Below the pieces are notes generated by a model, which had not been told where the DNA came from, searched no databases, and was given only the letters and a program-made list of their open reading frames with translations. Positions 1 to 12,765 of a stretch of 12,765 bases of DNA are shown here, piece after piece. Position 1 is the stretch's first letter. Each line of letters opens with the position of its first letter. The position numbers and the translations under genes are program-made. Source of the stretch: a virus (Duplodnaviria > Heunggongvirae > Uroviricota > Caudoviricetes); IMG/VR virus record IMGVR_UViG_2634166457_000023, positions 1 to 12,765 of that record. One strand, 5' to 3'.

Positions 1-1119
1 TCAAATAACCAACTTAACCCATTCCTGACCTCGAGTATCGTTATAGCGATCGGTGGTTGCCTGGACTTTATGTCCTAGTAATGTTTTTGTATCGATACCC
101 TGTGCACGGTACAGCCGTTCTGATAGAGAGCGTTGTTCATGAAATGTTGGCGGAGTTTTTCCTGCTGGTGGAATTATCCCAGCCAGATCCCGTGCTTTGG
201 CAAAGTAGTCGCTCAGGTTGTCTTTACTCATCGGCTTTGGTTGTTTCTGGTGCCGACTATGGATTAGATATGGACTTAATATTCGGTCTCGGCACCCATC
301 AATAACTTCTTTTAACGTTATCCCAATGGCATCACAGCGTAGTGTAAGCGGTAACGCCAGACGCATTCCGGTTTTTCCCTGGGTGATATGCAAGTGTTCG
401 TTCCACACATCTGAAAAACGCATGTGGCAAATGTCATCACGGCGCTGACCAGTAACAATCGCAAGAAGCATTGCGTTACGGATAAAGTGTTTTTCAGGCG
501 TTGCGTTGTAAATTTTTTGCCAGTCTTCCAGGGGGAGCCTGGCTCTGGTTACTTTAGGGATCGGTTTACGGGTAGCCTCCGGAGGATTCCATCCAGGAGG
601 AACTTCCCCTGCATGCTGTGCTTCTTTATAAATATCAACCCATAATCCGCGATTTACTCTCGCTGTGCTGACCATGTCTTTATCCAGCCACTCATCCAGT
701 ATTAATGCAAAGTCTCTTACTTCCAGTTCTTTCAATGGGTGGTTTCCCAGACGGGAAACCAGGTATGCAGCCATTCGAGTTTTTTCTTTGTGAGTTGTAG
801 CTGCAATATCTCCATTTTTCAGTCGCGTGTCCTGTATTTTCAGATATCGATCAACCCATGCCTTTAATCTGATACCCCGACGTTTTGTTGCTGACGGACT
901 TTCATCAATTTTGCGCATGAAATATTCAGCTTCTGCTGCAGCTATTCGCTGATTGGCTGTGGAAGCGATTTTTTCTGCCTTACCTTTGTCTGTTCCGAGT
1001 CCGTGAAATTTTCCAGTCACAGGATTTTTATACTGGTAGTAAACTCTGCCAGTTCTGCGATCAAACTTTTCGTAAAGACCGGCTACGTCAGTGCTGTTTT
1101 TTCGTGGCCTCGGTGACAT
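1..1119 (-). CDS. int: Tyrosine recombinase, lambda-family integrase (372 aa, complete)
   Basis: Full ORF. N-terminal YYQYKNPVTGKFHGLG arm-binding-like segment; catalytic-domain motifs LLAIVTGQRRDDI, PPTFHEQRSLSERLY and LLGHK...TTDRY. These align by eye with lambda Int as I recall it. Confidence 0.9.
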   Translation of the reverse strand: MSPRPRKNSTDVAGLYEKFDRRTGRVYYQYKNPVTGKFHGLGTDKGKAEKIASTANQRIAAAEAEYFMRKIDESPSATKRRGIRLKAWVDRYLKIQDTRLKNGDIAATTHKEKTRMAAYLVSRLGNHPLKELEVRDFALILDEWLDKDMVSTARVNRGLWVDIYKEAQHAGEVPPGWNPPEATRKPIPKVTRARLPLEDWQKIYNATPEKHFIRNAMLLAIVTGQRRDDICHMRFSDVWNEHLHITQGKTGMRLALPLTLRCDAIGITLKEVIDGCRDRILSPYLIHSRHQKQPKPMSKDNLSDYFAKARDLAGIIPPAGKTPPTFHEQRSLSERLYRAQGIDTKTLLGHKVQATTDRYNDTRGQEWVKLVI

Positions 1120-1357
1120 GAGTTAAAATCTCCTTCAGTGTATCATCATCGCCAGTATGAATTTCCGGCGCAATTCCCGTTTCACCAGGTCCAACAAATA
1201 CTGCTCGGCGATCTATCAGCCAACGCCCACGAATTTTTTGTGGTCTTGGAACGATGTATCCTAGTTTTCCGTATTTCACCAGGGTAGTGTTTGTTATTGG
1301 GAGACTGAACCGTTTTGGCTTCCACTCATCGAGCGTTATCAGGTACTGTTCGCTCAT
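1088..1357 (-). CDS. xis: Excisionase-like protein (Xis), 89 aa
   Basis: Small ORF directly upstream of int, overlapping it by 32 bp as in lambda xis-int. ATG at 1357 preceded by GGAG at about 8 nt. Segment LITLDEWKPKRFSLP...RGRWLIDRRAV resembles the lambda Xis N-terminus. The track start at 1366 is a GTG 9 nt further upstream. Confidence 0.65.
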   Translation of the reverse strand: MSEQYLITLDEWKPKRFSLPITNTTLVKYGKLGYIVPRPQKIRGRWLIDRRAVFVGPGETGIAPEIHTGDDDTLKEILTHVTEATKKQH

Positions 1358-1375
1358 GGCTATCACTCCGGAACG

Positions 1376-1407
1376 CGCCAGTTGCAGAATACCAACGACA
1401 ACTGGCG
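1376..1407. other. Inverted repeat CGCCAGTTG / CAACTGGCG (9-bp arms, 14-nt loop) in the exo-xis intergenic spacer
   Basis: Perfect 9-bp inverted repeat read directly at 1376-1384 and 1399-1407. No U-run follows on either strand. Confidence 0.4.
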
Positions 1408-1418
1408 ACGGTTGAACA

Positions 1419-3815
1419 TTAAAAATCAGCCTGACTCGGGATCAGTTTTTGCCAGATAGCTGAAACGTATTTTGCCTGGTAACGAGCGTCATCAAGTGCA
1501 TTATGGCGCTCACCTTCGAATGGGATAGCCGTTCTGGCATCGAAGTCTATGGCTTTCCCCAGCTCAACGATTGTGCATACATCGCGATCGTTGTGGTAGT
1601 GCCAGGGGCAGGGGATACCCTGTCGTTCGTATGAACGGCGTAAAATCACGTTGTCGAAGTTGGCTCCATTTCCCCAGACCTGAACAAAAAATTCACCGGA
1701 GTTTTCGGCGATAAATTCACGCAATTGCAGTAGTGCATCATCTAACGGGATTTCATCGGTCAGAATGGCAGATTGCGCCTCGCGTGATTGCTTAAGCCAC
1801 CATTTAATGGTGTCACGATCAATGACTCCGCCAGCTGTTTCCAGATCGATGGTCTTACTAAATTCCGGTCCCATATCTCCGGTTTGCGGATCGAAAAATA
1901 TTGCACCTATTGAGATAATTGGGGCATCGGGATTTTTTCCCATCGTTTCAAGGTCGATCATCAGATGAATACCCGCTCTGCTGGTGGATGTACTTTCATG
2001 ATGACCGTTCACCTTAATTGGGTGATCTGCCGCCTCGCCAGTTTCATTATCGCTGGCGTGATACTGATCACCGCCAGCGTCCTCCTTATGAAGATGTTCA
2101 TTGCCTTCCATTTCCTCCGGATTTTTTTCCTGAGATTCAGCCTGATTTTCTCCATTGAATGTTTCCTGGTATGTTGTGTTGCCCATTACCGCACCACAAT
2201 CAGGGCAGCTACCCCCGCCAGCCTGACCGCAGGCGGTACAAACTTTTCCTTCTTCCGGTTCGCTGTTCTGATGCAGTTTTTCTTCTGTCTGCTGTTCATC
2301 ATTTTCCGTTTTTTTAACTTCATTTGAGGGGATGTGATGACCGGGAATCCATTTCGGATCATTCGGGTCGCTAATCCCTTCAACGAACTCACCACGTGAT
2401 GCTGCCAGTAATTTGTCCGCATCGATCGGAGTTTTGGGCGGAATGTTTTTTCTGGCTTCGTGGAGTTCTGCCCGCAGTTCCTGGTATTTCGCATCAACAG
2501 AATTTACCTGTGGCTGAGCATCTATCGACGGTGTGTCCTGATGATGTTCAGTTGCATCCGGTTCCACTGCTTCAGGCGTTGTCTGTTCATTTGCCATTGC
2601 GCCAGATGGTTGCAGTTTTTCTTCATCATCCTGTTTTCCTTCTTCTGTTACACGCTGCGGCATCGGGGCAGAGGATCGACCGCAGGCAATATCCACGATT
2701 TCCGGATCAGGGTTGGCATGATCGGTTTCAGTAAGTACCTTGTTCAGATATTCAGTGACATGCGCAGGGATGACCTCGATACCAATTGGTGCTTCTTTCA
2801 CGGATGCAACCACGATGGCGCGGGAATAATCCAGCCCGCCAGGCATGGTGATGAATTTGTCGCGGAAAACAGAAAAGGGCGGTTTATTTTCAGCGATAAT
2901 TTCCTCGACACGTTTAGCGTGTGCAGGATGAAGGTTATAGATGTCCACGTCCATTGAACGGGCCAGTACGCCAGTGGCTACGTCGCGTGCCAGTGATGCC
3001 TGATCGTGGATGAAACCGTCGCCGCGATCGGTAAGGTTCCCGCCGCCAGCATTAGCACCGGAAGCCGTGCGGGTGATACGCGAAACACGATTCCCTTTCA
3101 TCCACTCTTTTGTCAGCAGACCGCGATCGGTGTAGTCAGCGTCCAGGTATGCTTCGATAAAAGCGGTCATCATCCCAAAATCTGAATTTTTCGGATTAGG
3201 GAAAACTTTGTCAGTATCACGCACCAGTTTGTGGAGGTCGCGAATTTCCAGCGGGTCGAGCAGGCTGGTTTTGTGGGAAACAGCCAGGGCAGTAACTGCC
3301 GGTAGTTCTTCATCTCGTGCAATGTGTAATGTCTGGAGTTCGTCGCGTGAAACGTGCGTTACTGGTTTTTCGCTGCCGTGTTGAGCAAGCCAACGAATGG
3401 GCAGTTCCTGACCGGAAACAGGCAGGAGCATGCTCTCCTCAATCTCAGTCATGTCTTCGCCGTTGACGTTGGTATTGTCAGTGCTTGCTGGTTTGTCCTG
3501 AACAGAGGGGGAAGGGCCGATAAATGTCATTGTGATGCCATCTTTCCCGCCTTTTTCATAGCGGTTGCAGAATTCCGTATCAAACACGCCTTCTGGCGGG
3601 AGGTCATCAACAACGGGCAAATTGACGCGGACGGGTTTTTTAAAGTCGTCTTCATCATAATCGTTGTCATCCATTGCGGTAATGCAGCGGGAGATTGCAA
3701 CAGATAATTTTTTTGCTGTAGTCCAGTAAAAACCACCTTTAATTCCCAGGCGTTTTCTTACTTTGTCATTTTTTGCTTCGCAATATAGTGCAAATTCTTC
3801 TTTATCAGTGCTCAT
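1419..3815 (-). CDS. Exodeoxyribonuclease VIII-like protein (798 aa): RecE-like N-terminal region, acidic/Cys-containing linker, C-terminal DEDDh (DnaQ-like) 3'-5' exonuclease domain
   Basis: N-terminal approx 400 aa resemble the non-catalytic N-terminus of E. coli RecE from memory ([12 protein letters not shown]...[21 protein letters not shown]...). The C-terminal approx 190 aa (coords approx 1419-1990) carry DEDDh motifs: IDLETMG (Exo I), [12 protein letters not shown] (Exo II), [13 protein letters not shown] (Exo III). A CTAC...CPDC pair sits in the linker near 2195-2245. Confidence 0.85.
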
Positions 3816-3908
3816 TATTGATAAACCTCATCACAGATTTAAGGGTGAACAAATCTCTGCCATTGCTGACATATAAGAATGAAACTGGATGTTTATTACT
3901 GTGCTGTT

Positions 3909-4100
3909 TTAAAATCCTGCCGGGATTTCGTTATTATCCTGGTGAATAACTTTATCGACCGGATAACAGTTGCCTGGAATTTTCTGTTCGGTTGCTGCTG
4001 CCATACATTCCTGCATTGTTCTGTGAATACTGACTGCAATATCAACTGGCTCTCCGGAAACAAGAAAAATCGTCAGAATAAGTGCAAATACTGGATTCAT
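3909..4100 (-). CDS. ydfD: YdfD-like small membrane/lysis protein (63 aa)
   Basis: ATG at 4100 overlaps the upstream stop (ATGA). AAAGGA lies 8 nt upstream. N-terminal hydrophobic helix MNPVFALILTIFLVSG. Size and position after dicB match Qin ydfD from memory. Confidence 0.6.
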   Translation of the reverse strand: MNPVFALILTIFLVSGEPVDIAVSIHRTMQECMAAATEQKIPGNCYPVDKVIHQDNNEIPAGF

Positions 4101-4285
4101 TGTGCACATCCTTTTGGCATCAGACGTAAACGGGCCAGCATTGAAACAATGCATACTTTATTTAATAACTCCCGTTCGTGTTTTCTTTTGTTAATGGCCT
4201 CTTCAGTAAATACAGGATTACTGATAGTGACACCAATTTCAAAAAAACCTTCAGACGTATTAACGTTTGGTAATAACATTTTCAT
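4097..4285 (-). CDS. dicB: Cell-division inhibitor DicB (62 aa)
   Basis: Product MKMLLPNVNTSEGFFEIGVTISNPVFTEEAINKRKHERELLNKVCIVSMLARLRLMPKGCAQ closely matches my recollection of E. coli DicB. GAGGG lies 7 nt upstream of the ATG at 4285. Lies immediately downstream of the DicF-like sequence. Confidence 0.75.
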   Translation of the reverse strand: MKMLLPNVNTSEGFFEIGVTISNPVFTEEAINKRKHERELLNKVCIVSMLARLRLMPKGCAQ

Positions 4286-4454
4286 TATCGCGCCCTCAAC
4301 AATGAGTTTTGTGATGCGGTGCCTGGTGCCTCCAGGTGACGTTAACCAGTTAACAATTAACGCCGGATATAGAGAATCCACCCATAACACTGTTTTTGGT
4401 TTTAACTGTTCCGCGTGCGCTCAGCCGCATTCACCGCATCACAAAATTCACTTT

Positions 4455-4512
4455 AAAAAGGGCGGTAGAGCAGTCACGGAGTAAAACTGATACCGCCAAA
4501 CGTCACCAGAAA
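4455..4512 (-). ncRNA. dicF: DicF small RNA (antisense inhibitor of ftsZ translation), with 3' terminator-like hairpin and U-run
   Basis: Minus-strand sequence UUUCUGGUGACGUUUGGCGGUAUCAGUUUUACUCCGUGACUGCUCUACCGCCCUUUUU matches my memory of E. coli DicF almost base for base. It ends in a GGCGGUA...UACCGCC stem plus U5. Located upstream of dicB as in Qin. Confidence 0.75.
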
Positions 4513-4846
4513 ATTGATAACAGAGGGCGTTGCAGCGGGGTTGTCACTTAAGCGTATGGTCAACCTGACAACCCGGTGTCCTCAACGGGGAAGGAATAAC
4601 CCCGCCATACTTACCGCCGCGCCATTTCGCGGAGTGCCACAACCGGAAGCGCACGGTCGACGAAAATTTAACGACAGGCTGTCTATGAACCAGCTACCTC
4701 GCCGTGCGCTTTCGCGTTATGGTCTGACTTTTCAGGGAAATATCCTTTCAGTAAACTGTCAGTGCCGGATGCTCACCCGTGTCCGGCGCACGCACTCCAC
4801 CTCACCCGTGGAGAACTCCTTAATCACCAACCCTCAGGAGGGTGAA

Positions 4847-5122
4847 ATGTCGACTGAAAATGATGAAATCATTAACTCCCTGATACGCCAGATTAATAAT
4901 TTTGATAAAGCATTGCAGCATGCTGCGGCGCGTAGTGATATAACTCTTTTAGCAATTTCATTTCTTGCATCTGTTATGGATAAAAATGAAGTCGTACGAC
5001 AGAGTCTTGTTGATTATATCGACTCGCTTCAACCCGGCACTTTCAATCATGAGAGCTTCAATCATGAGAAAGAGCATGTTAAATCTGTAATTAATTCTCT
5101 TGTTTTGAATCAAAAGAATTAA
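4847..5122 (+). CDS. Hypothetical protein (91 aa), AT-rich cargo gene convergent with the leftward operon
   Basis: ATG at 4847 preceded by GGAGG with a 5-nt spacer. Product looks helical with an in-frame FNHES/FNHEK repeat. Marked drop in GC relative to flanks. The upstream part of track ORF 4514..5122 is Arg-rich and treated as non-coding. Confidence 0.5.
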   Translation: MSTENDEIINSLIRQINNFDKALQHAAARSDITLLAISFLASVMDKNEVVRQSLVDYIDSLQPGTFNHESFNHEKEHVKSVINSLVLNQKN

Positions 5123-5420
5123 TGCTTTTTGTTGCAAAGTAATTTTCAAGGGGGTCTATTCGAATCCCTTTCTTTTTCATTAACAAGCCAAACCCCTTAT
5201 CAATGATGTCCATTAATTCCAGGAAGTATTTTTCATGTAAATCCTGGTTATCAGAGAGCTGCTTCTCTTCGTACAGCCCGATAAAGGCACGACGCACGTT
5301 ACCGGATATAGTATCGATGGTTTCTTTTTCTACGGTACTAAGGTCAAGAGTCGCCAGTTGAGAACGAACTATATTCGATGCCATTTCTTGGAATGGTATT
5401 GGTAAATCTTTAAATTCCAT
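5091..5420 (-). CDS. Hypothetical protein (109 aa), AT-rich cargo gene in the leftward operon
   Basis: ATG at 5420 preceded by GAGG at 6 nt. Protein-like composition with no family recognised. Its 3' end overlaps the convergent gene at 4847-5122 by 32 bp. Confidence 0.55.
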   Translation of the reverse strand: MEFKDLPIPFQEMASNIVRSQLATLDLSTVEKETIDTISGNVRRAFIGLYEEKQLSDNQDLHEKYFLELMDIIDKGFGLLMKKKGIRIDPLENYFATKSINSFDSKQEN

Positions 5421-5455
5421 CGTCAACCTCATCAGTCAGTTATTCACTCGGATAC

Positions 5456-5662
5456 TTAACCATTCTGGCAACATTTAATGCCGCCGCTTCTGTCAGGCTG
5501 GCGATGCTCTGGTCCAGTTCGGCCATTTTTTTTGGCCTGTAGCGTCTTGGAATCATTGACCCATTTCAGGTCCTGCGCAGCCTTAACTTTTTGTTTCATC
5601 CACTCATAAATCTCATCATCGGTATAGCCTGGTGCGATGATGATGGGTTCTGGTTTCTGCAT
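5456..5662 (-). CDS. ydfC: YdfC-like small protein (68 aa as read); probably frame-disrupted at an A8 tract
   Basis: ATG at 5662 with GAGGAA RBS. After the homopolymer (plus T8 at 5526-5533) the read frame encodes low-complexity NGRTGPEHRQPDRSGG, while the neighbouring frame encodes helix-like MAELDQSIASLTEAAALNVARMVKYPSE ending at 5440. Position after ydfB matches Qin ydfC. Confidence 0.5.
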   Translation of the reverse strand: MQKPEPIIIAPGYTDDEIYEWMKQKVKAAQDLKWVNDSKTLQAKKNGRTGPEHRQPDRSGGIKCCQNG

Positions 5663-5691
5663 AATGATTCCTCGCGGTGCTGTTTCGCTTA

Positions 5692-5820
5692 TTAGCCGTT
5701 AGATTTTGCCGAACTGGAAAGCGCCTCTTTAAACTCACTAAAGCTGAGAGCGTCTTCGCCTTCGGCAAGGCCTTCGAAGTATTCTTCGTAAGCCTTTTCC
5801 ATGATTGCGTCGAAATCCAT
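5692..5820 (-). CDS. ydfB: YdfB-like small acidic protein (42 aa)
   Basis: ORF below the track threshold, found by hand: MDFDAIMEKAYEEYFEGLAEGEDALSFSEFKEALSSSAKSNG. Strong AGGTGA RBS. Lies between the YdfA-like and YdfC-like genes. The track ORF 5616..5825 is in a different frame. Confidence 0.55.
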   Translation of the reverse strand: MDFDAIMEKAYEEYFEGLAEGEDALSFSEFKEALSSSAKSNG

Positions 5821-5821
5821 A

Positions 5822-5977
5822 TCACTCACCTGAGTTTCTTTCCAGCCAGCGACGCGCGCCAGATTCGGTTTTAAACGTGGTGCTTTTGGTATACGTCATC
5901 GCGGTGAACGTACCGTCCTGGTTTGGGAACACGCCGCACACCAGAGATTCGTTGTTGCCAAGATCGATAGTATCCAT
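5822..5977 (-). CDS. ydfA: YdfA/YdaF-like small protein (51 aa, DUF1391-like)
   Basis: Hand-found ORF MDTIDLGNNESLVCGVFPNQDGTFTAMTYTKSTTFKTESGARRWLERNSGE. GAGG RBS 7 nt upstream. First gene downstream of the PL-like promoter. Family assignment is from memory. Confidence 0.6.
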   Translation of the reverse strand: MDTIDLGNNESLVCGVFPNQDGTFTAMTYTKSTTFKTESGARRWLERNSGE

Positions 5978-6149
5978 GCTGACCTCATTTCCCCTTAACG
6001 CCGGGGTAGCGGAACAAAAACCTGCTGCATAGTTAAAAGTTGAACCCCGCCGTCACTTTCGAATGCCTCGGGCTGGCTACATTGACCCCTGACCACTGCC
6101 TGGTAACTCGAAGTATTGCCCGGCGTTCTGTGGGGCGGGGTGGGTTGGT

Positions 6150-6200
6150 ATCTTTAGTTTAATAAACATTAAACTTAAGTCAAGCAAAAACTAAACCGCG
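6150..6200 (-). promoter_or_regulatory. OL/PL-like operator-promoter for the leftward early operon
   Basis: Minus-strand -35 TTGACT (plus 6178-6183) flanked by half-sites TTTAGT (6153-6158) and ACTAAA (6190-6195). The 11-mer GTTTAATAAAC is the exact reverse complement of GTTTATTAAAC in the OR region. Confidence 0.5.
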
Positions 6201-6214
6201 GGGCGTAACAAACA

Positions 6215-6237
6215 CAACGCTTTTGATAAAGTCGTTG
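6215..6237 (-). terminator. Weak terminator-like hairpin (CAACG...CGTTG) downstream of the toxin gene
   Basis: 5-bp inverted repeat 6215-6219 / 6233-6237 with a 13-nt loop, followed on the minus strand by UGUUUGUU. Sits between the toxin stop (6268) and the PL region. Confidence 0.25.
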
Positions 6238-6267
6238 CGGTTGTTATGTTTCTATTGGTAGTGAAAG

Positions 6268-6546
6268 TTAGGGAAACTGGCGTCTTGCGTGGATCACGTT
6301 TACTACTTCAACGCTTGATGTTGTTACGCGGTATAGAATTATATAGTTAGGGTGGGCCACAATCTCACGCAAGCCAGGTACTCTGTCGCTTGGTGGGTAT
6401 AAATACGGATGTTCGGATAATGGCAGCACACAACCCCTTAATCGCTGCCATAAGCGTTCAGCCGCATCTATGTCGAAACGAGCAATATAACTAGTTATAT
6501 CATCTAGGTCGGTATCTGCGCTTTCAAGCCATAACACGGGTAACAT
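6268..6546 (-). CDS. parE: ParE-family toxin (92 aa), ParE2-like, of a three-gene repressor-antitoxin-toxin operon
   Basis: C-terminal LREIVAHPNYIILYRV...VEVVNVIHARRQFP is typical of ParE/RelE-fold toxins. ATG at 6546 lies 1 nt after the antitoxin stop. The track start at 6642 is rejected. Confidence 0.8.
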   Translation of the reverse strand: MLPVLWLESADTDLDDITSYIARFDIDAAERLWQRLRGCVLPLSEHPYLYPPSDRVPGLREIVAHPNYIILYRVTTSSVEVVNVIHARRQFP

Positions 6547-6547
6547 T

Positions 6548-6739
6548 TTACTGCTTGCTCCGTTCCTTCCGCATTTTAGCAAAGCGTTCTGCCATTCTGC
6601 GCTCAACTTCGTCATGGGGAATTGCTGGGCGCGGATCTGCAAGGCTCGTTGCTACTTTCGCACGCAGCCATTCGTTGTAACTGTTTTCTTGTTCAATGGT
6701 TTCAAATTCAGAAACCATTGGTGAAAGGGCTCTATTCAT
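6548..6739 (-). CDS. Small antitoxin (63 aa), PaaA-like partner of the ParE toxin
   Basis: ATG at 6739 preceded by GGAGGA at 5 nt. Size and position match the PaaA-type antitoxins of paaR-paaA-parE operons described in E. coli O157 prophages (from memory). Starts 20 nt after the repressor stop. Confidence 0.65.
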   Translation of the reverse strand: MNRALSPMVSEFETIEQENSYNEWLRAKVATSLADPRPAIPHDEVERRMAERFAKMRKERSKQ

Positions 6740-6759
6740 GTTTCCTCCGGTTTTATAAC

Positions 6760-7131
6760 TCAGGCGCGGCGGCATTTTTGCGCCGCAATCCATCTCGCTA
6801 TGAGATCTTCCATTGATTCTTTTTTCTGCTTTAACTCGTTGATTATCTGGCGTTGCTCATCCTCAGGGAAGGCTGAAAAAATCTGCAATAATTCCAGTTG
6901 ATTAGACGTTAACCCTGCATGTGGTGGAGAAACCTCCGGTTGTTCTGCGTATTCCGCATCCAGATACCCTTCCGGCATCCCGTATGTTTGCTCTATTCTT
7001 CTGGCAGCCTTTTCTCCAAACGAGGCTCTCCCACTCATTAGTTGAGATAGGTAGCTCTTCTCTTTGGGTGGCAGAGTTTTATCTTTAAACCACTCCTTGA
7101 GACGTAAACGGCGAATTTCTTTTTTTTGCAT
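6760..7131 (-). CDS. HTH (XRE-type) prophage repressor, CI/DicA-like, lacking a peptidase S24 domain (123 aa); possibly also the PaaR-type regulator
   Basis: N-terminal HTH KEKSYLSQLMSGRASFGEKAARRIEQTYGMP. C-terminal LTSNQLELLQIFSAFPEDEQ resembles DicA as I recall it. Divergent from the cro-like gene. ATG at 7131 has no SD but sits 6 nt after a GATAAT -10, so likely leaderless like lambda cI. The track GTG start at 7194 is rejected. Confidence 0.75.
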   Translation of the reverse strand: MQKKEIRRLRLKEWFKDKTLPPKEKSYLSQLMSGRASFGEKAARRIEQTYGMPEGYLDAEYAEQPEVSPPHAGLTSNQLELLQIFSAFPEDEQRQIINELKQKKESMEDLIARWIAAQKCRRA

Positions 7132-7137
7132 GTGGTA

Positions 7138-7220
7138 ATTATCTTTAGTAATCACTAAACAAGCAAATACTTGACTTAATGGTTTATTAAACACTAAACT
7201 CGCAAAAAAACACTAAACCG
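7138..7220. promoter_or_regulatory. OR-like region with back-to-back divergent promoters (PRM-like leftward, PR-like rightward) and three ACTAAA operator half-site positions
   Basis: Palindrome TTTAGTaatcACTAAA at 7144-7159 sits in the spacer of the PRM-like promoter (-35 TTGCTT as plus 7161-7166, -10 GATAAT as plus 7138-7143). PR-like -35 TTGACT at 7171-7176 with -10 near 7194-7200. ACTAAA recurs at 7193-7198 and 7212-7217. Confidence 0.55.
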
Positions 7221-7228
7221 AGGAAGGT

Positions 7229-7531
7229 ATGACATTAAAAGAGTTTATTAAATCATTGAGGGTTGGTGATGCTAAGAAATTCGCGGCCAGACTAGGTGTA
7301 TCGCCATCTTACTTATCGCAAATGGCGTCTGGACGAGCAGCTATATCTCCAACCCGCGCCCTTATGATCGAATCTGCGACGGAAGGCCAAGTAAGTAGGG
7401 CGGAGCTACGACCCCATGATTGGGAGCTTATTTGGCCTGAGTATGCGAGCGGCATTCGTTTGGGGCAAACGCATGTAGTTCATGCTGAAGGTGATTGTAG
7501 AGCATGCTTATCTGATGGAGTTGATTCATGA
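7229..7531 (+). CDS. ydaS: Cro-like HTH protein, YdaS family (100 aa)
   Basis: GAGGAAGG RBS. HTH AKKFAARLGVSPSYLSQMASG and ELRPHDWELIWPE motif typical of YdaS-type proteins. First gene of the rightward operon. Confidence 0.75.
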   Translation: MTLKEFIKSLRVGDAKKFAARLGVSPSYLSQMASGRAAISPTRALMIESATEGQVSRAELRPHDWELIWPEYASGIRLGQTHVVHAEGDCRACLSDGVDS

Positions 7532-7953
7532 AAATCAAGCATGAACACATCCGCATGGCGATGAATGCCTGGGCGCATCCTGATGGCGAAAAAGTACCGG
7601 CTGCGAAAATTACCAAAGCGTATTTCGAACTGGGAATGACGTTCCCGGAACTGTATGACGACAGCCATCCCGAAGCCCTGGCTCGCAATACCCAGAAAAT
7701 TTTCCGCTGGGTAGAGAAAGATACCCCTGATGCTGTTGAAAAAATTCAGGCGTTGTTACCTGCGATCGAAAAGGCAATGCCGCCTCTGCTGGTGGCCCGA
7801 ATGCGCAGTCACAGTTCAGCCTATTTTCGGGAACTGCTGGAGACGCGGGAGCGGCTGGTGAGGGATGCAGATGATTTTATTGCGGTGGCAATTACTGGTT
7901 TCAACCAGATTAATCGCGGTGGCCCGGCAGGAAATGCCGTGGTGATGCACTAA
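7528..7953 (+). CDS. ydaT: YdaT-family protein (141 aa), CII-like position
   Basis: ATGA overlap with the ydaS-like stop. Size and position match Rac YdaT. Family assignment is from memory. Confidence 0.7.
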   Translation: MKIKHEHIRMAMNAWAHPDGEKVPAAKITKAYFELGMTFPELYDDSHPEALARNTQKIFRWVEKDTPDAVEKIQALLPAIEKAMPPLLVARMRSHSSAYFRELLETRERLVRDADDFIAVAITGFNQINRGGPAGNAVVMH

Positions 7954-7976
7954 AAGCACGGTGTTCGGGGTTTTTT

Positions 7977-8909
7977 ATGAGCAGCAAGCTTCATGGTCTT
8001 GTCTGGGAAGGGTGCGCCTTCACCGGCATGATCTTATCCAGGGTGGCAGTGATGGCTCGTCTTGCAGACTACAGCAATGATGAAGGTGTGTCATGGCCTG
8101 CAGTAGAGACCATTCGTCGTCAGATTGGGGCAAAGAGTGAATCAACGGTTAAAGCGGCGATAGCGGAACTGGAAAAGAGCGGCTGGCTGACAAAGGAAGA
8201 GCGTAAGGTTGGTGGACGTAACGTAAGCAATATCTACCGGCTTAATGTGGAAAAACTCGAAGCTGCAGCAGCGGCAGCGCGAGAGGCATATAAACCGAAA
8301 AGAAAAATTAGCCCGGCAAAAAATGACCCGTTAACGGTTGACCCGTCAAATTTTGATGGATCAACCGTTGATAAAAAACGGTCGGTTAGGGGGGCGATGA
8401 TTGACCCCGATCCGTCAGTATTAAAATCTGATCCGTCAGATAAAAGATCTTCTTGTCCGGACGCTTCGCAACCGGACCCGCAGACGGCTGAACAGGATTT
8501 TTTAACCCGACACCCTGACGCGGTTGTGTTCAGTGCGAAAAAACGCCAGTGGGGAAGTCAGGAAGATTTGGCGTGCGCACAGTGGATCTGGGGACGAATC
8601 GTGAGTCTTTACGAGCAGGCAGCCAGCGATGATGGCGAGATCACTCGACCGAAAGAACCAAACTGGACCGCGTGGGCCAATGACGTGCGCACAATGCGGA
8701 TGCTGGATGGCAGAACTCACAGACAAATTTGCGAAATGTTTGGGCGGGTACAGCGGGATCCATTCTGGGTAAAAAACATCATGAGCCCGTCAAAGCTCCG
8801 CGAAAAATGGGACGAACTGGTCATCCGCCTGGGGCGTTCGCCTGTACAGCGTTGTGTGAATCACATTTCTGAACCGGACACCGAAATTCCACCGGGCTTC
8901 AGGGGGTAA
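7977..8909 (+). CDS. Phage replication initiation protein (310 aa): N-terminal HTH, repeat-rich middle, C-terminal DnaT-like region
   Basis: N-terminal VSWPAVETIRRQIGAKSESTVKAAIAELEKSGWL is typical of phage replication-initiator HTH domains. The middle encodes DP/DPS peptide repeats over DNA iterons. Lies in the lambda O position. Confidence 0.7.
   Translation: MSSKLHGLVWEGCAFTGMILSRVAVMARLADYSNDEGVSWPAVETIRRQIGAKSESTVKAAIAELEKSGWLTKEERKVGGRNVSNIYRLNVEKLEAAAAAAREAYKPKRKISPAKNDPLTVDPSNFDGSTVDKKRSVRGAMIDPDPSVLKSDPSDKRSSCPDASQPDPQTAEQDFLTRHPDAVVFSAKKRQWGSQEDLACAQWIWGRIVSLYEQAASDDGEITRPKEPNWTAWANDVRTMRMLDGRTHRQICEMFGRVQRDPFWVKNIMSPSKLREKWDELVIRLGRSPVQRCVNHISEPDTEIPPGFRG
8325..8442. repeat. Iteron-like repeats and palindromes inside the replication gene (putative origin of replication)
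   Basis: Four copies of GAYCCGTYAR (8325-8337, 8340-8350, 8409-8420, 8430-8440). Palindromes CCGTTAACGG, TTGACCCGTCAA and ATCTGATCCGTCAGAT. A-rich tract just upstream at 8291-8324. Confidence 0.4.
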
Positions 8910-8949
8910 GTGTTTATTTCAGGTCATGAGGTAATTTTCAGGAGGACTT

Positions 8950-9369
8950 GTGGCAAAAGTTTTTACACAAGAAGAGCGGGAAAAAATTAAAGGGCAGGTT
9001 GTTGAACTCGTACGCCAGAGTGGGCGCGAGACGTTACGACAACTGGAAGCTAAAACCGGGGCAACAAGATATCTGATGAGCGTTCTGGCCAGAGAACTGG
9101 TTGCCAGTGGCGATGTATACAACTCCGGCTACGGGTTATTCCCGTCTGAACAGGCTCGTAAGGACTGGCAAAACGCCCGCAAAAAACTCTCGAGGGCAAA
9201 GCTGAAGAAACCATCTGTGGTTGATCCGGACCTTATCTGGTCATTACCAGACGGAGAGATACGTCGCTATGACAGACGTCTGAACATAATCTGTCGCGAG
9301 TGCCGGAAGAGTGAGGTTATGCAGCGAGTTTTGGTGTTTTACAGGGGTAATAACGGATCAACGATATGA
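8950..9369 (+). CDS. Hypothetical protein (139 aa), possible winged-helix N-terminus
   Basis: GTG start at 8950 with GGAGG 4 nt upstream. The stop overlaps the next start (ATGA). No family recognised. Confidence 0.55.
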   Translation: MAKVFTQEEREKIKGQVVELVRQSGRETLRQLEAKTGATRYLMSVLARELVASGDVYNSGYGLFPSEQARKDWQNARKKLSRAKLKKPSVVDPDLIWSLPDGEIRRYDRRLNIICRECRKSEVMQRVLVFYRGNNGSTI

Positions 9370-9659
9370 GGGTTTATATTGCAGGGCTGATGACCGGGTA
9401 TAAAAATTTCAACCGTGAGGCATTTCACAAGGCGGAAGAGGAGCTGAAGCGGGAAGGGTATACAGTCTTAAACCCGGCAGTACTTCCGGACGGGCTGACA
9501 CAGCCACACTACATGGATATCTGCATGGCAATGATTCGTTGTGTGGATGCGATTTACATGCTGAAAGGTTGGCAGCGGTCAGCAGGCGCTAAGGCAGAGC
9601 TGGCACTGGCGGAGAAGCTGGGGCATGCAGTTATTTTTCAGGAGGTAATCAGTGAGTGA
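9366..9659 (+). CDS. DUF4406-family protein (97 aa), nucleoside 2-deoxyribosyltransferase-like fold
   Basis: MRVYIAGLMTGYKNFNREAFHKAEEELKREGYTVLNPA...DAIYMLKGWQRSAGAKAELALAEKLG matches the DUF4406 pattern from memory. Confidence 0.75.
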   Translation: MRVYIAGLMTGYKNFNREAFHKAEEELKREGYTVLNPAVLPDGLTQPHYMDICMAMIRCVDAIYMLKGWQRSAGAKAELALAEKLGHAVIFQEVISE

Positions 9660-10069
9660 AATTAATTACCAGGCACTGCGTGTTGCAGGCATTTGCATCA
9701 AAGGAGAGTGACGTGGAAATAAAACCAGAAGATGAGTTAAGTAATATTGTTTTATTTCCTGTAAAAGAGGATGACCCGCGTAATCAGGTTAATTTTCTTT
9801 ATGAGCCATCGGAAAGACCATATTGCCATCACGCTTCTGTCCGGGTTGATGAAAAAGAGCGTCAGGTCCGATGCAAAATCTGCGGTGCGGTTGTGGAGCC
9901 ATTTGACTGGATGCTCTCTGTGGCGAAAAGAGAAACCAGACTGGCAGATGATGTAAGGCTCTTGCGCCAGGAGGAACGGGAAAGGCGGAAAAATATAGAA
10001 AAGTTAATTCAGATTGAGCGTAACGCGAAAGCGCGGATACGCAGGGCGACAAAATCCAGAACTGAATAA
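9656..10069 (+). CDS. Hypothetical Cys/His-containing protein with basic coiled-coil C-terminus (137 aa from GTG 9656; 118 aa if from GTG 9713)
   Basis: CHH...CKIC motif then a Arg/Glu-rich helical tail. GTG 9656 overlaps the upstream stop (GTGA), with GGAGG 10 nt upstream. Alternative GTG 9713 has AAGGAG at 6 nt. Confidence 0.55.
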   Translation: MKLITRHCVLQAFASKESDVEIKPEDELSNIVLFPVKEDDPRNQVNFLYEPSERPYCHHASVRVDEKERQVRCKICGAVVEPFDWMLSVAKRETRLADDVRLLRQEERERRKNIEKLIQIERNAKARIRRATKSRTE

Positions 10070-10161
10070 TTAAATTTAGTAGTGTTAAAAATTTAATCCT
10101 TAACCGGAGGGATTTCTGTACCCTCAGAACATCAGGAGGCAGCCCGAAAGGGCGGTAAGAA

Positions 10162-10380
10162 ATGGCTACATTATTCAGAAAAGAATATCTGCGAAGAAGC
10201 AGGGCTATAGAACTCTTGTTTCTCATTCTGTTTATCGTGTTGATGATACCGATATCCCCGTTAATTCTGGTATGGGGAATTGGGAAAATAATTGAGCCAG
10301 TTATTGAATTGTATACCGACGTTGTATGGGCGTCGTTCAACACACTGCACAACAAAATCAACCCATATAAGGAAAGCTGA
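10162..10380 (+). CDS. Small membrane protein (72 aa), one predicted transmembrane helix
   Basis: Hydrophobic stretch LLFLILFIVLMIPISPLILVWGIG. The next gene starts 1 nt after its stop. RBS region is structured (see hairpin finding). Confidence 0.5.
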   Translation: MATLFRKEYLRRSRAIELLFLILFIVLMIPISPLILVWGIGKIIEPVIELYTDVVWASFNTLHNKINPYKES

Positions 10381-10381
10381 T

Positions 10382-10747
10382 ATGGCACTGACGAAAAAAC
10401 AACGCGCAGAACTGCGCATGAAGTTCGGTGGTCGCTGCGCTTATTGCGGCTGCGAACTTGGCGAAAAGTGGCATGCAGACCATGTCAAACCGGTCATTCG
10501 TTTTGATGGAAATATGCTTCACCAGGAACGTGACGATATATCCAACATGGTTCCGGCATGCCACCCATGCAATCTGCACAAGCATTGCAGTAGCCTGGAA
10601 GATTATCGGCGAATTATCAGTGATGGTCGTCGTGAATTCCTTGCGTCCGGGAAAGGCAAAGCGCTGGTTCGTATGGGATTGGTTGAAATGAAATCTGACC
10701 CGGTTGTGTTCTGGTTTGAAAAATATCAAGAAGGGGCTACAGCATGA
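10382..10747 (+). CDS. HNH endonuclease (121 aa)
   Basis: [20 protein letters not shown] ... [10 protein letters not shown]: Cys pairs around an H-N-H core. AAGGAAA RBS. The track start at 10292 is rejected as a non-coding extension. Confidence 0.8.
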
Positions 10748-11091
10748 CCACTTTTACCAGAGAGCAGTTAATAGCTCACGCAGAGGAGACTATTGAAGCA
10801 CAGAGACTGTGCATACCGGGCACAATCGACCATGACATCATCCGCACATATAAGATGGATATTGCTGTTCTGGAAATCGCACTGGCATCGCTGGCAGCAG
10901 AGCCAGCCGGTAAATTGCATGAATACAAACCAGTGGGATATCAGCGTCTGGTCGATGAGTTAACCATGCTGGTAAAGCAGTTAACCTGGCAACTGAGGAA
11001 AGCGAAGTCAGACTGCAAATTACCGGATAAGGCGATGAGTTATCTGGAGCGGAACGGACTGATAAGCGTGGAAGATGATATTTTACGATGA
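10744..11091 (+). CDS. Hypothetical phage protein (115 aa)
   Basis: ATGA overlap with the HNH stop. Protein-like composition with no family recognised. Confidence 0.55.
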
Positions 11092-11171
11092 CCTGGCCTG
11101 AGGCATTCACAACGGTAGGAATTGCAATGGCGGTGGCGCTGGTGGTGTATTCGATTTGCCGCTGGGGATAA
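11088..11171 (+). CDS. Possible tiny hydrophobic peptide (27 aa)
   Basis: [31 protein letters not shown] overlap with the upstream stop. Ends just before a terminator-like hairpin. Below normal gene-calling thresholds. Confidence 0.3.
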
Positions 11172-11181
11172 ATCGCCGAAA

Positions 11182-11215
11182 AAAGATCCCGACACAAACA
11201 TGAGCCGGGATCTTT
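11182..11215. terminator. Bidirectional terminator-like hairpin between convergent transcription units
   Basis: 10-bp perfect inverted repeat AAAGATCCCG / CGGGATCTTT with a 14-nt loop. T/A-rich flanks give a U-run on either strand. Lies between the rightward operon end (11171) and the convergent ParE gene end (11296). Confidence 0.45.
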
Positions 11216-11295
11216 GATTTATATAGCCTACGAATCCGCCAGTAAGAGAGGGGGCGGACGGTTTATTCTAACACCGGAATGATGTGGGTAAAAGT

Positions 11296-11595
11296 TTATA
11301 AGAAATCGGTTTCATAACTTTGCCCACCATGATAGATACCGACAATAAAGACTTTTCTGCCATCAACGGCAAAAGCAATAATCGTTCTGTGGCGGAAATG
11401 AGTTACCCGCATCCCCTGGCGAATATCATCGCGTTTATTGCCCCGATGCGGGAATGTAGAAAACCCATCAAGATAATCAAGAAGCGCATTGGCATAATTG
11501 TCAGCAATGACGTTCCCTGCTTTCTCCGTTATATATCTGTGCAGGTTGATTATTTGTTGTTCGGCCTCAGGAGTAATGATGACTTCATATGTCAT
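11296..11595 (-). CDS. parE: ParE/RelE-family toxin (99 aa)
   Basis: Size, composition and position (start 5 nt after the stop of a ribbon-helix-helix antitoxin) are typical of ParE. C-terminal RKVFIVGIYHGGQ-type strand motif. Confidence 0.8.
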   Translation of the reverse strand: MTYEVIITPEAEQQIINLHRYITEKAGNVIADNYANALLDYLDGFSTFPHRGNKRDDIRQGMRVTHFRHRTIIAFAVDGRKVFIVGIYHGGQSYETDFL

Positions 11596-11600
11596 GCAGA

Positions 11601-11858
11601 TTACTTCCCGGATCGAATCGCGGCGCGAACCTGTGAAATGGAGCGTCCGTTGTTTGGATTTTCACGGATAGAATCAAGAGAGGGGGCGGCTGAATGCGTT
11701 AACCACGCTTCGATTGCTTTATCGCGCTCATTCAGTGCGCGAAGCCCTTCACGAATGACCTCGCTTTCTGAAGCATAGGCACCGGAAGCCACACGGGCGC
11801 GCACCATGTCAGCCATCTCGTTAGTTAATGTAATGCTGAATTGTTGGGTTGTACGCAT
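11601..11858 (-). CDS. parD: ParD-family antitoxin, ribbon-helix-helix (85 aa)
   Basis: FSITLTNEMADMVRARVASGAYASESEVIREGLRAL is a classic ParD/RHH signature. ATG at 11858 with GTGAGG RBS. The track start at 11921 is rejected. Confidence 0.8.
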   Translation of the reverse strand: MRTTQQFSITLTNEMADMVRARVASGAYASESEVIREGLRALNERDKAIEAWLTHSAAPSLDSIRENPNNGRSISQVRAAIRSGK

Positions 11859-11886
11859 GGTAAACCTCACGGAGTAGGATAGAACA

Positions 11887-11924
11887 CTATTCGATGATAG
11901 CACGCTGCCTGTTGACGACAACAG
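11887..11924 (-). promoter_or_regulatory. Putative parDE promoter with palindromic operator
   Basis: Minus-strand -35 TTGTCG (plus 11916-11921), 16-nt spacer, -10 TATCAT (plus 11894-11899). The 16-bp palindrome CTGTTGacgaCAACAG (11909-11924) overlaps the -35. Confidence 0.4.
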
Positions 11925-11993
11925 AAATCAGAGACAATATTGCCGCACGCCAGCCTGAACAACTGGCACCTGCTGCGCCAGCAGAGAAAACAG

Positions 11994-12272
11994 ATGGCGC
12001 ACAAGACCAAATTACACAATTCTGATAATTCAGCCGCCTTTGCCAGCAGGCACGGGCGGCGTTCTCATGCATTCAAATATGACTGGTACCAGCATGACCC
12101 ATGCACTGAAGAACAGGCAGAGTGGCTGATTCAGAACTACCGCAGACGTGGTTACGAGTTTCAGAAAGACCTCAGTCTTGACTTCCGACACTGGATAATT
12201 TCAGTCAGGCTCCCTTATTCCGAACGCCCACCGCGTCCGTCCCGCACATTCCAGCAACGGATCTGGAGGTAA
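11994..12272 (+). CDS. Hypothetical protein (92 aa from ATG 11994)
   Basis: ORF with a weak RBS. The track start at 11940 is a TTG. Its stop is followed by GGAGG and the next ORF start. No family recognised. Confidence 0.4.
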   Translation: MAHKTKLHNSDNSAAFASRHGRRSHAFKYDWYQHDPCTEEQAEWLIQNYRRRGYEFQKDLSLDFRHWIISVRLPYSERPPRPSRTFQQRIWR

Positions 12273-12273
12273 C

Positions 12274-12765
12274 GTGCGGGTATTGCTTCGACCTGTTCTG
12301 GTACCGGAACTCGGGCTGGTGGTCCTTAAGCCGGGCCGTGAGTCCATGCAGGTATTTCATAATCACCGGGTGCTGGTGGAGTCAGAACCGAAAAGCATGC
12401 TCGGTCTGCCGTCCGGAGTCGTCCCTGCCGTTCGCCAGCCGCTGGCGGAGGATAAATCATTACTGCCATTTTTCAGCAATGAGCGTGTGATTCGTGCTGC
12501 TGGCGGCGCTGGCGCACTGTCTGACTGGCTCTTGCGTCATGTTAAATCCTGCCAGTGGCCTCATGGTGATTATCACCACAGCGAAACCGTCATACATCGT
12601 TACGGTACCGGCGCGATGGTGTTGTGCTGGCACTGCGACAACCAGCTGCGTGACCAGACATCCGAATCACTCGGGCAACTTGCTCATCAAAACCTGTCAG
12701 CATGGATGATTGACGTCATACGCTATGCAATGAATGGCACACAGGAGCGTGAATTATCGCTGGCT
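12274..12765 (+). CDS. Hypothetical Cys/His-rich phage protein, 3'-truncated by the window edge (possibly DUF968-like)
   Basis: Frame open from GTG 12274 (GGAGG 4 nt upstream) to the window end. Alternative ATG at 12346. Motifs CQWPHGDYHH and CWHCDNQ suggest metal binding. Family guess is low confidence. Confidence 0.5.
   Translation, partial: MRVLLRPVLVPELGLVVLKPGRESMQVFHNHRVLVESEPKSMLGLPSGVVPAVRQPLAEDKSLLPFFSNERVIRAAGGAGALSDWLLRHVKSCQWPHGDYHHSETVIHRYGTGAMVLCWHCDNQLRDQTSESLGQLAHQNLSAWMIDVIRYAMNGTQERELSLA

Follow-up and report, generated by a model that had tools for sequence, protein, structure and literature searches.

A lambda-like genetic switch in a CP-933P-type prophage immunity region and the conservation of its operator module

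The window analysed here is the whole of a 12,765-nucleotide stretch of viral DNA (Caudoviricetes; positions 1 to 12,765 of IMG/VR record IMGVR_UViG_2634166457_000023), and this report concerns the repressor switch that it carries. A three-gene operon, paaR2-paaA2-parE2, with the repressor gene first, and the gene pair ydaS-ydaT diverge across a 97-bp intergenic region (7132–7228), as they do in prophage CP-933P, and positions 6150–7953 almost certainly represent a lambdoid prophage's immunity region, of the CP-933P/Sp12 type. An earlier note, made from the letters alone, had described 6150–7220 as a lambda-like switch with ACTAAA half-sites, three promoters and a leaderless repressor mRNA. 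The sites, the promoters and the leaderless repressor gene are real, but they are already known from CP-933P, where they were mapped experimentally and published in 2021 (Jurenas et al. 2021, PMC8630535). The switch itself adds nothing to that study; the only new material is a family-wide conservation analysis, which is incremental. The genes and regulatory elements of the region, including its right and left operator regions (OR and OL) and numbered inverted repeats (IR), are as follows.

6760–7131, minus strand: paaR2, open reading frame for a CI-like repressor of 123 amino acids; ATG at 7131
6548–6739, minus strand: paaA2, antitoxin of 63 amino acids (Pfam PaaA2, 1.7e-19); GGAGGA Shine-Dalgarno sequence upstream of the ATG at 6739
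6268–6546, minus strand: parE2, toxin of 92 amino acids (Pfam ParE_toxin, 4.9e-16); 279-nt PGAP call in the homologous locus L067
7229–7531, plus strand: ydaS, Cro-like regulator (Pfam YdaS_toxin/HTH_3; 98 of 100 residues identical to PDB 8C7K)
7528–7953, plus strand: ydaT, CII-like activator (Pfam YdaT_toxin; matches PDB 3C4R and 8BT1)
7143–7138, minus strand: -10 of promoter PRM, GATAAT, read from the sequence; followed by 6 nt (7137–7132) and the ATG (7131–7129)
7166–7161, minus strand: -35 of PRM, TTGCTT, read from the sequence; 17-nt spacer
7171–7176, plus strand: -35 of promoter PR, TTGACT, from a consensus scan; within the published reporter fragment 7131–7204
7195–7200, plus strand: -10 of PR, TAAACT, from the same scan; 18-nt spacer
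7143–7160: IR1, 18-bp palindrome with halves CTTTAGTAA and TCACTAAAC, filling the PRM spacer; named IR1 and covered by the DNase I footprints of PaaR2 and YdaS in PMC8630535
7172–7180: IR2, degenerate right half-site TGACTTAAT, read from the sequence; overlaps the PR -35
7182–7199: IR3, 18-bp palindrome with halves GTTTATTAA and ACACTAAAC; overlaps the PR -10
7208–7218, plus strand: IR4, right half-site AAACACTAAAC, an exact copy of 7189–7199, in the short ydaS leader
6149–6197: OL region, with a 10-mer, an 18-bp palindrome and a half-site; inside the PL933P reporter fragment 6150–6267
6183–6156, minus strand: promoter PL, TTGACT (6183–6178), 16-nt spacer, TAAACT (6161–6156), from the consensus scan
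7521–7538: OM, the primary operator of YdaT, TTGATTCATGAAAATCAA, a perfect match to TTGATTN6AATCAA; within the PRE933P reporter fragment 7437–7556

The assignment to a CP-933P-type region was supported at several levels. Pfam searches found PaaA2, ParE_toxin, YdaS_toxin and YdaT_toxin in the region, and residues 1–65 of PaaR2, the N-terminal DNA-binding domain, were 100% identical to PDB entries 7NKV, 8C3K and 8C3L. Operator repeats with the half-site GTTTAGTAA were present in OR, a second PL/OL set was present beyond parE2, and the YdaT operator spanned the ydaS stop and the ydaT start, all as in CP-933P. The paaA2 start was placed from the sequence and from a 192-nt PGAP call ('RelB family antitoxin') in L067. 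Both Escherichia phage Evi and 590 complete E. coli genomes matched a 1.6-kb region at 98% identity. Compared to CP-933P (strain EDL933) and Sp12 (strain Sakai), the window has the same genes in the same order, an identical PaaR2 DNA-binding domain and the 97-bp intergenic region; it also shares with CP-933P the primer-defined OR, the half-sites, the -35 and -10 hexamers, the YdaT operator and the leaderless geometry, the differences being C instead of T at 6152 in OL, two residues in YdaS and several in YdaT. Hallez 2010 is another reference for the paaR2-paaA2-parE2 immunity region of CP-933P/Sp12.

Identity to EDL933 and Sakai was judged from primers, PDB sequences and phage Evi. A total of 17 of the 21 primers of PMC8630535 mapped exactly onto the window, including those for the OR reporter and the mobility shift fragment, and the other four (R-PL, at 6152, Footprint1, F-CP933P and R-YdaT) each differed by one base. 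Primer mapping placed the published fragments as follows.

7132–7228: electrophoretic mobility shift assay (EMSA) fragment
7082–7270: footprint fragment (one primer with one mismatch)
7131–7204: PRM/PR reporter
6150–6267: PL933P reporter (one primer with one mismatch)
7437–7556: PRE933P reporter

All OR and OL elements were checked by direct reading of 5900–7500, by pattern search and with a repeat finder, and every motif listed in the earlier note was found where the note had placed it. Within OR, the -35 boxes of PRM and PR stand back to back, 4 bp apart. The PRM -35, TTGCTT, resembles the consensus only weakly, which suits an activated promoter; the consensus scan recovered PR (TTGACT-18-TAAACT, 7171–7200) and PL but not PRM, and TTTGCTT at this position was at least 80% conserved among 28 distinct relatives. 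The inner dyad of IR1, TTTAGTaatcACTAAA, lies at 7144–7159, and ACTAAA occurs at 7193–7198 and 7212–7217. The positions given for these half-sites were right; the first, however, is part of a full palindrome (IR3) rather than a lone half-site. IR4 spans roughly positions +3 to +12 of the PR transcript, ahead of the ydaS Shine-Dalgarno sequence, GAGGAAGG (7220–7227).

About 1 kb away, OL repeats the same parts. The 10-mer TATCTTTAGT stands at 6149–6158 and again, exactly, at 7140–7149 in OR; it is followed by the 18-bp palindrome with halves GTTTAATAA and ACATTAAAC (6157–6174) and by the half-site AAACTAAAC (6188–6196), with TTTAGT at 6153–6158 and ACTAAA at 6190–6195. As had been noted before, the 11-mer GTTTAATAAAC (6157–6167) is the exact reverse complement of its OR counterpart GTTTATTAAAC (7182–7192), and the 10-mer TTAAGTCAAG (6175–6184) is likewise the reverse complement of 7170–7179. 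The repeat finder also returned a 28-bp dyad in OL centred at 6165/6166. The hexamers of PL are identical to those of PR, and the PL module is inverted relative to PR.

The clustering of these motifs is not an effect of composition and exceeds chance. Of the ten ACTAAA sites in the window, six fell within OL (~50 bp) and OR (~75 bp), and all four copies of ACTAAAC in the 12.8-kb window lay in OL or OR on the plus strand. Four ACTAAA sites within 80 bp were reached in none of 2000 dinucleotide-preserving shuffles of the window, and shuffling of the AT-rich intergenic segments alone gave P ~0.0002 for OR and ~0.015 for OL. The repeat finder identified five 11-mers of the form AAAC(A/t)(C/T)TAAAC across OR and OL, all on the plus strand. 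The core of the ACTAAA half-sites is the reverse complement of the published half-site consensus, GTTTAGTAA.

The binding assays and reporter fusions that the earlier note had called for were already available for CP-933P. In EDL933 the 97-bp intergenic region holds PRM933P and PR933P, and starts determined by 5' RACE (rapid amplification of cDNA ends) agree with both promoters (PMC8630535). PaaR2 and YdaS each shift the 97-bp fragment in EMSA and give DNase I footprints of ~78 bp and ~65 bp, respectively, each overlapping both promoters. The same study described four roughly equally spaced 18-bp inverted repeats, with IR1 over PRM, IR3 over PR, and IR2 and IR4 without a conserved left half, and reported that low PaaR2 activates PRM and represses PR, that YdaS prefers the PRM side, that the order of occupancy is opposite for the two proteins, and that PaaR2 is an octamer, for which looping was suggested. 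Beyond parE2, PL933P has the same -35 and -10 as PR933P, carries OL1-3 and is repressed ~100-fold by PaaR2 and YdaS. Thus, the lambda-like OR/OL switch had been demonstrated for an essentially identical sequence, and its three promoters are genuine; the earlier note had overlooked a fourth, PRE, which YdaT activates (PMC8630535), together with the YdaT operator at 7521–7538, whose sequence TTGATTN6AATCAA was footprinted in a separate paper (Prolic-Kalinsek 2023, PMC9986795). The note had also missed the ParE-type toxin–antitoxin (TA) cargo of the repressor operon. The mapping of transcription starts that it proposed has likewise been published, for PRM and PR.

The predicted leaderless repressor mRNA had the same outcome. 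In the window, GATAAT is followed by 6 nt and the paaR2 ATG, a reading of the sequence found no Shine-Dalgarno sequence upstream of this ATG, and the geometry fits a leaderless mRNA. In EDL933 the 5' RACE start of PRM933P coincides with the paaR2 ATG, and N-terminal sequencing (MQKKE) as well as the mass bore out leaderless translation (PMC8630535); the N-terminus of PaaR2 in the window is also MQKKE. Gene callers often extend paaR2 to 144 or 150 amino acids (6760–7194, minus strand, GTG at 7194, across the operators), and two large protein clusters (P0001 and P0002) have these lengths. They probably do so because the true start is leaderless and lacks a Shine-Dalgarno sequence.

Taken together with the published work, these elements suggest the following mechanism. 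PaaR2 takes the place of lambda CI and would be made from the weak PRM as a leaderless mRNA starting at its own ATG, co-transcribed with the paaA2-parE2 pair. PaaR2 and the divergent Cro analogue YdaS compete for 18-bp palindromes built on the half-site GTTTAGTAA, with core TTTAGT/ACTAAA; low PaaR2 closes PR and stimulates PRM, YdaS would take the PRM side first, and a bistable switch would result. PL/OL (6149–6197), just past parE2, is repressed by both proteins and would drive the leftward early genes, and YdaT, a CII analogue, binds 7521–7538 and switches on PRE, boosting the repressor operon. Of the weaker sites, IR2 overlies the PR -35 and IR4 the beginning of the PR transcript. By their geometry, IR1 may be OR3-like, since it fills the 17-nt PRM spacer, and IR3 may be OR1-like, since it covers the PR -10, while the degenerate IR2, over the PR -35 and beside the PRM -35, is likely OR2-like and the activating position. 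We infer both the looping between OL and OR by an octameric repressor and the exact bases contacted. Published experiments on near-identical DNA cover the PRM and PR starts, leaderless translation, binding and footprints, and the regulation of PRM, PR, PL and PRE reporters.

The functional architecture of lambda, with divergent PRM and PR, a distal PL/OL and a leaderless repressor mRNA, is present here and backed by the experiments of PMC8630535. Shared with lambda are back-to-back PRM and PR with common operators, a Cro analogue acting on the same sites, a duplicated PL module past the cargo of the repressor operon, a CII analogue activating PRE and an octameric repressor as reported. Unlike lambda, however, the window has no similarity to it in protein sequence, carries a TA pair in place of rexAB, and has four approximately equally spaced 18-bp sites (19–20 bp apart) rather than three spaced at 23–24 bp; against three 17-bp operators per side in lambda, OR has four 18-bp sites and OL two or three, and OL and OR are ~1 kb rather than ~2.4 kb apart. 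Lambda-type repressors combine a helix-turn-helix (HTH) with a C-terminal S24/LexA-type autocleavage domain, a combination that the 123-residue repressor does not have; a Pfam search returned no hit for PaaR2 and no S24 domain. Thus, the earlier description as lambda-like holds for the architecture, but induction is not lambda-like, because the repressor lacks an S24 cleavage domain; PaaR2 was reported to have no peptidase motif and not to respond to mitomycin C (PMC8630535).

The same layout of a repressor, a divergent YdaS-type Cro and a YdaT-type CII is found in the Rac (RacR/YdaS/YdaT) and Qin (DicA/DicC) prophages of E. coli K-12. CP-933P YdaS and YdaT are 26% and 31% identical, respectively, to their Rac counterparts (PMC8630535). 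The repressors of these two prophages, RacR and DicA, differ from PaaR2, and their operators presumably differ as well.

To place these elements in a wider context, one genome per species was scanned, which yielded 65 loci, and upstream regions were analysed in 64. A protein search returned two kinds of PaaR2 homologue, a PaaR2-type of ~123 amino acids and a type of ~212 amino acids that carries an S24 peptidase domain (PF00717) and shares the N-terminal domain at up to about 80% identity; the stretch KSYLSQL...FGEKAARR was almost invariant in both. Upstream of the repressor, the 64 loci revealed a conserved module, AGTTTATTAAACACTAAAC-N5-GTCAAG-TATTTGCTT-GTTTAGnnATTACTAATCAAAAT-N6-ATG, in which GTCAAG, the reverse complement at the PR -35, was conserved family-wide. 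The module was found in Escherichia, Klebsiella, Raoultella, Yersinia, Proteus, Erwinia, Brenneria and Arsenophonus, and, among betaproteobacteria, in Pandoraea, Massilia, Undibacterium, Dechloromonas and Nitrosomonas. Its pair of palindromes, the -35 boxes standing back to back and a -10 lying 5–7 nt ahead of the ATG were kept from Enterobacterales to Burkholderiales, and the OR module was retained whether the C-terminal domain was of the PaaR2 type or an S24 peptidase. Only IR1, IR3 and both -35 boxes were conserved across the family; IR2 (beyond the -35, to which conservation at this site was confined) and IR4 were lineage-specific, and most relatives had the stronger and the weaker IR3 half the other way round from the window. 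This division into constrained and lineage-specific elements bears on what PaaR2 and YdaS recognise. A search of the accessible literature found no later paper on PaaR2-DNA recognition, although PDB entries 8C3K, 8C3L and 8C7K exist.

In 35 of the 64 loci a -10-like hexamer preceded the ATG by exactly 6 nt, and in three more by 5 or 7 nt, and none of these 38 loci had a Shine-Dalgarno sequence; locus L012 also shows the 6-nt spacing when judged by eye, which would bring the counts to 36 and 39. Leaderless repressor expression would thus be an old and conserved trait of the PaaR2 family. Two groups were not leaderless by geometry: ten loci in Pasteurellaceae/Orbaceae (L034, L039, L043, L047, L050, L053–L055, L059 and L060) had a 15–25-nt leader with TAGGAG, and ten in Photorhabdus/Xenorhabdus (L003–L010, L016 and L017) had a 60–80-nt insert between the operator/-10 and the ATG.

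Of the 65 loci searched, 54 had a YdaS-like gene opposite the repressor, and in most loci a second cluster of half-sites followed the repressor or its cargo; where inspected, this cluster was the PL module, GTTTA....TTGAC-N17-TAAACT. By contrast with the operators, paaA2 and parE2 were found in none of the other loci searched with the same operator module, which supports the view of Jurenas et al. that the TA genes were inserted into an older immunity cassette. The same N-terminal domain and nearly the same OR DNA were combined with an S24 domain (~210 amino acids, presumably SOS-cleavable) in L020, L023, L024, L026–L029, L036, L038 and L042, and with a short PaaR2-type C-terminus in L002, L011, L013, L014, L022 and L037. 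Such pairings suggest domain swapping on a fixed operator/Cro cassette, with possible cross-immunity.

We consider it an even chance that the PaaR2 N-terminal domain, a YdaS-type Cro and the operator/promoter DNA form one portable cassette, its bases almost unchanged from Enterobacterales to Burkholderiales and Nitrosomonas, with an interchangeable C-terminus (PaaR2-type or S24) and with a leadered, Shine-Dalgarno-dependent start in Pasteurellaceae/Orbaceae and Photorhabdus/Xenorhabdus. The literature consulted held no description of a cassette of such breadth. If the proposal is true, cross-immunity is predicted between inducible and non-inducible prophages of different genera. In a phage collection, the repressor domain was found in 4 of 50,697 records, none of them characterised; three of the four had nothing annotated at the match.

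The conservation data also bear on how the repeated sites are read. Jurenas et al. leave the precise recognition sequences of PaaR2 and YdaS open and consider that direct repeats could be as important as inverted ones, so that the units recognised could be the same-strand repeats AAAC(A/t)(C/T)TAAAC (the 'pseudosymmetrical operators' of PMC8630535), with the octamer seated on an array of like-oriented half-sites. The orientation of the five 11-mers agrees with this, all being on the plus strand although PL is inverted relative to PR, as does the fact that IR2 and IR4 have a right half-site only. Both operator blocks conserved among the 28 distinct relatives are nevertheless palindromic (GTTTAG..A.TACTAA and GTTTATTAAACACTAAAC), the extra right half-sites of IR2 and IR4 are the ones not conserved, and the exchange of better and poorer halves in IR3 is expected of a symmetric rather than a directional site. 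HTH repressors of the class of PaaR2 normally bind dyads as dimers. The lack of conservation at IR2 and IR4 and the IR3 half swap favour recognition of dyads, and we regard direct-repeat recognition as unlikely.

Two further readings were rejected. The ACTAAA clusters could be a by-product of AT-rich, duplicated promoter DNA, with the regulators recognising other bases: the -10 of PR and PL (TAAACT) itself overlaps a half-site, and both regions have a G+C content of just 31–37%. This is very improbable given the composition-matched intergenic shuffles above, the conservation of IR1, which belongs to no -10 or -35, across bacterial classes, the published footprints over the sites (PMC8630535) and the near-invariance of the KSYLSQL...FGEKAARR recognition region in loci that retain them. 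The operon does encode a ParE-family toxin with its antitoxin, and the palindrome could instead be bound by a PaaA2-ParE2 complex in classical type II TA autoregulation, with PaaR2 as an accessory. Type II TA systems are as a rule controlled by conditional cooperativity at palindromic operators. PaaA2, however, lacks a DNA-binding domain, its only match being to a short PaaA2 'stability determinant' motif (Pfam; PMC8630535), PaaR2 alone binds and regulates (PMC8630535), and the absence of paaA2 and parE2 from every other locus with the same operator module indicates that the operators predate the TA cargo; this explanation is scarcely credible.

Several points weigh against carrying the published switch over to the window base for base. 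The experiments used near-identical EDL933 DNA, from which the window departs in OL at one base or more (C instead of T at position 6152, within the PL primer); 7157–7183 falls outside primer coverage; and within the operators the window and phage Evi differ only at 6152 (C/T) and at a single base of the A-tract that separates IR3 from IR4. PL is supported in PMC8630535 by reporter data, the starts mapped there being those of PRM and PR. The roles of IR2 (beyond the -35) and IR4 are less certain, as neither is conserved in relatives. Overall, reading of raw sequence without tools can recover a real, experimentally validated genetic switch, although the finding itself matters little.

Other observations concern the flanks of the switch. 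A perfect 11-nt inverted repeat, GCGAATTTCTT and AAGAAATTCGC, flanks OR at 7111–7121 (5' part of the paaR2 coding sequence) and 7274–7284 (5' part of ydaS); it is probably a coincidence, as a rough estimate gives ~0.2 such pairs by chance in 1.4 kb. Just 3' of the PL -10, nine loci (L011, L014, L020, L021, L026, L027, L029, L003 and L005) share a loosely conserved CATCAACA...(A/C)GGCAGG at the predicted start of the PL transcript, which might be an early-transcript signal; the window has ACCAACCCACCCCGCCCC in its place. When the 177-nt PL leader (5975–6151, minus strand) was folded for put- or nut-like RNA, it was no more structured than shuffled sequences (z-score +0.79), and a terminator scan of 5900–7700 found no convincing terminator between parE2 and OL.

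Across the window, the order is int, xis, a large exonuclease gene, a DUF1482 gene, dicB, DicF, small open reading frames and a DUF1391 gene; then PL/OL, parE2-paaA2-paaR2, OR and ydaS-ydaT; and then a replication gene, DUF977, DUF4406 and HNH genes, another ParE/ParD pair and a DUF968 gene. Of 5,426 complete E. coli genomes, none covered more than 81% of the 12.8-kb window, the best match being 95% identical; because the core is 98% identical in 590 genomes while coverage of the window stays at or below 81%, the region is an immunity cassette in a mosaic prophage backbone. The presence of DicB and DicF on the PL side is a further likeness to Qin. The dicB cell-division inhibitor gene (4097–4390, minus strand) lies in a leftward operon that PL would drive, and just upstream of it is the full-length DicF antisense small RNA (4460–4511, minus strand; Rfam RF00039, 74 bits, E 3.5e-15), the only Rfam match in the whole window, with nothing found in 6150–7220. 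The second ParE-family toxin (11296–11595, minus strand; Pfam ParE_toxin, 3.2e-10) adjoins an antitoxin open reading frame (~11601–11860, minus strand; ParD family antitoxin by PGAP in L067) and, with paaA2-parE2, therefore makes two ParE-type TA modules in one prophage segment. The exonuclease (1419–3815, minus strand; 798 amino acids) joins an N-terminal Exonuc_VIII (RecE-like) segment to an Rv2179c-like 3'-5' exoribonuclease domain at its C-terminus (Pfam 8.7e-36 and 1.3e-66).

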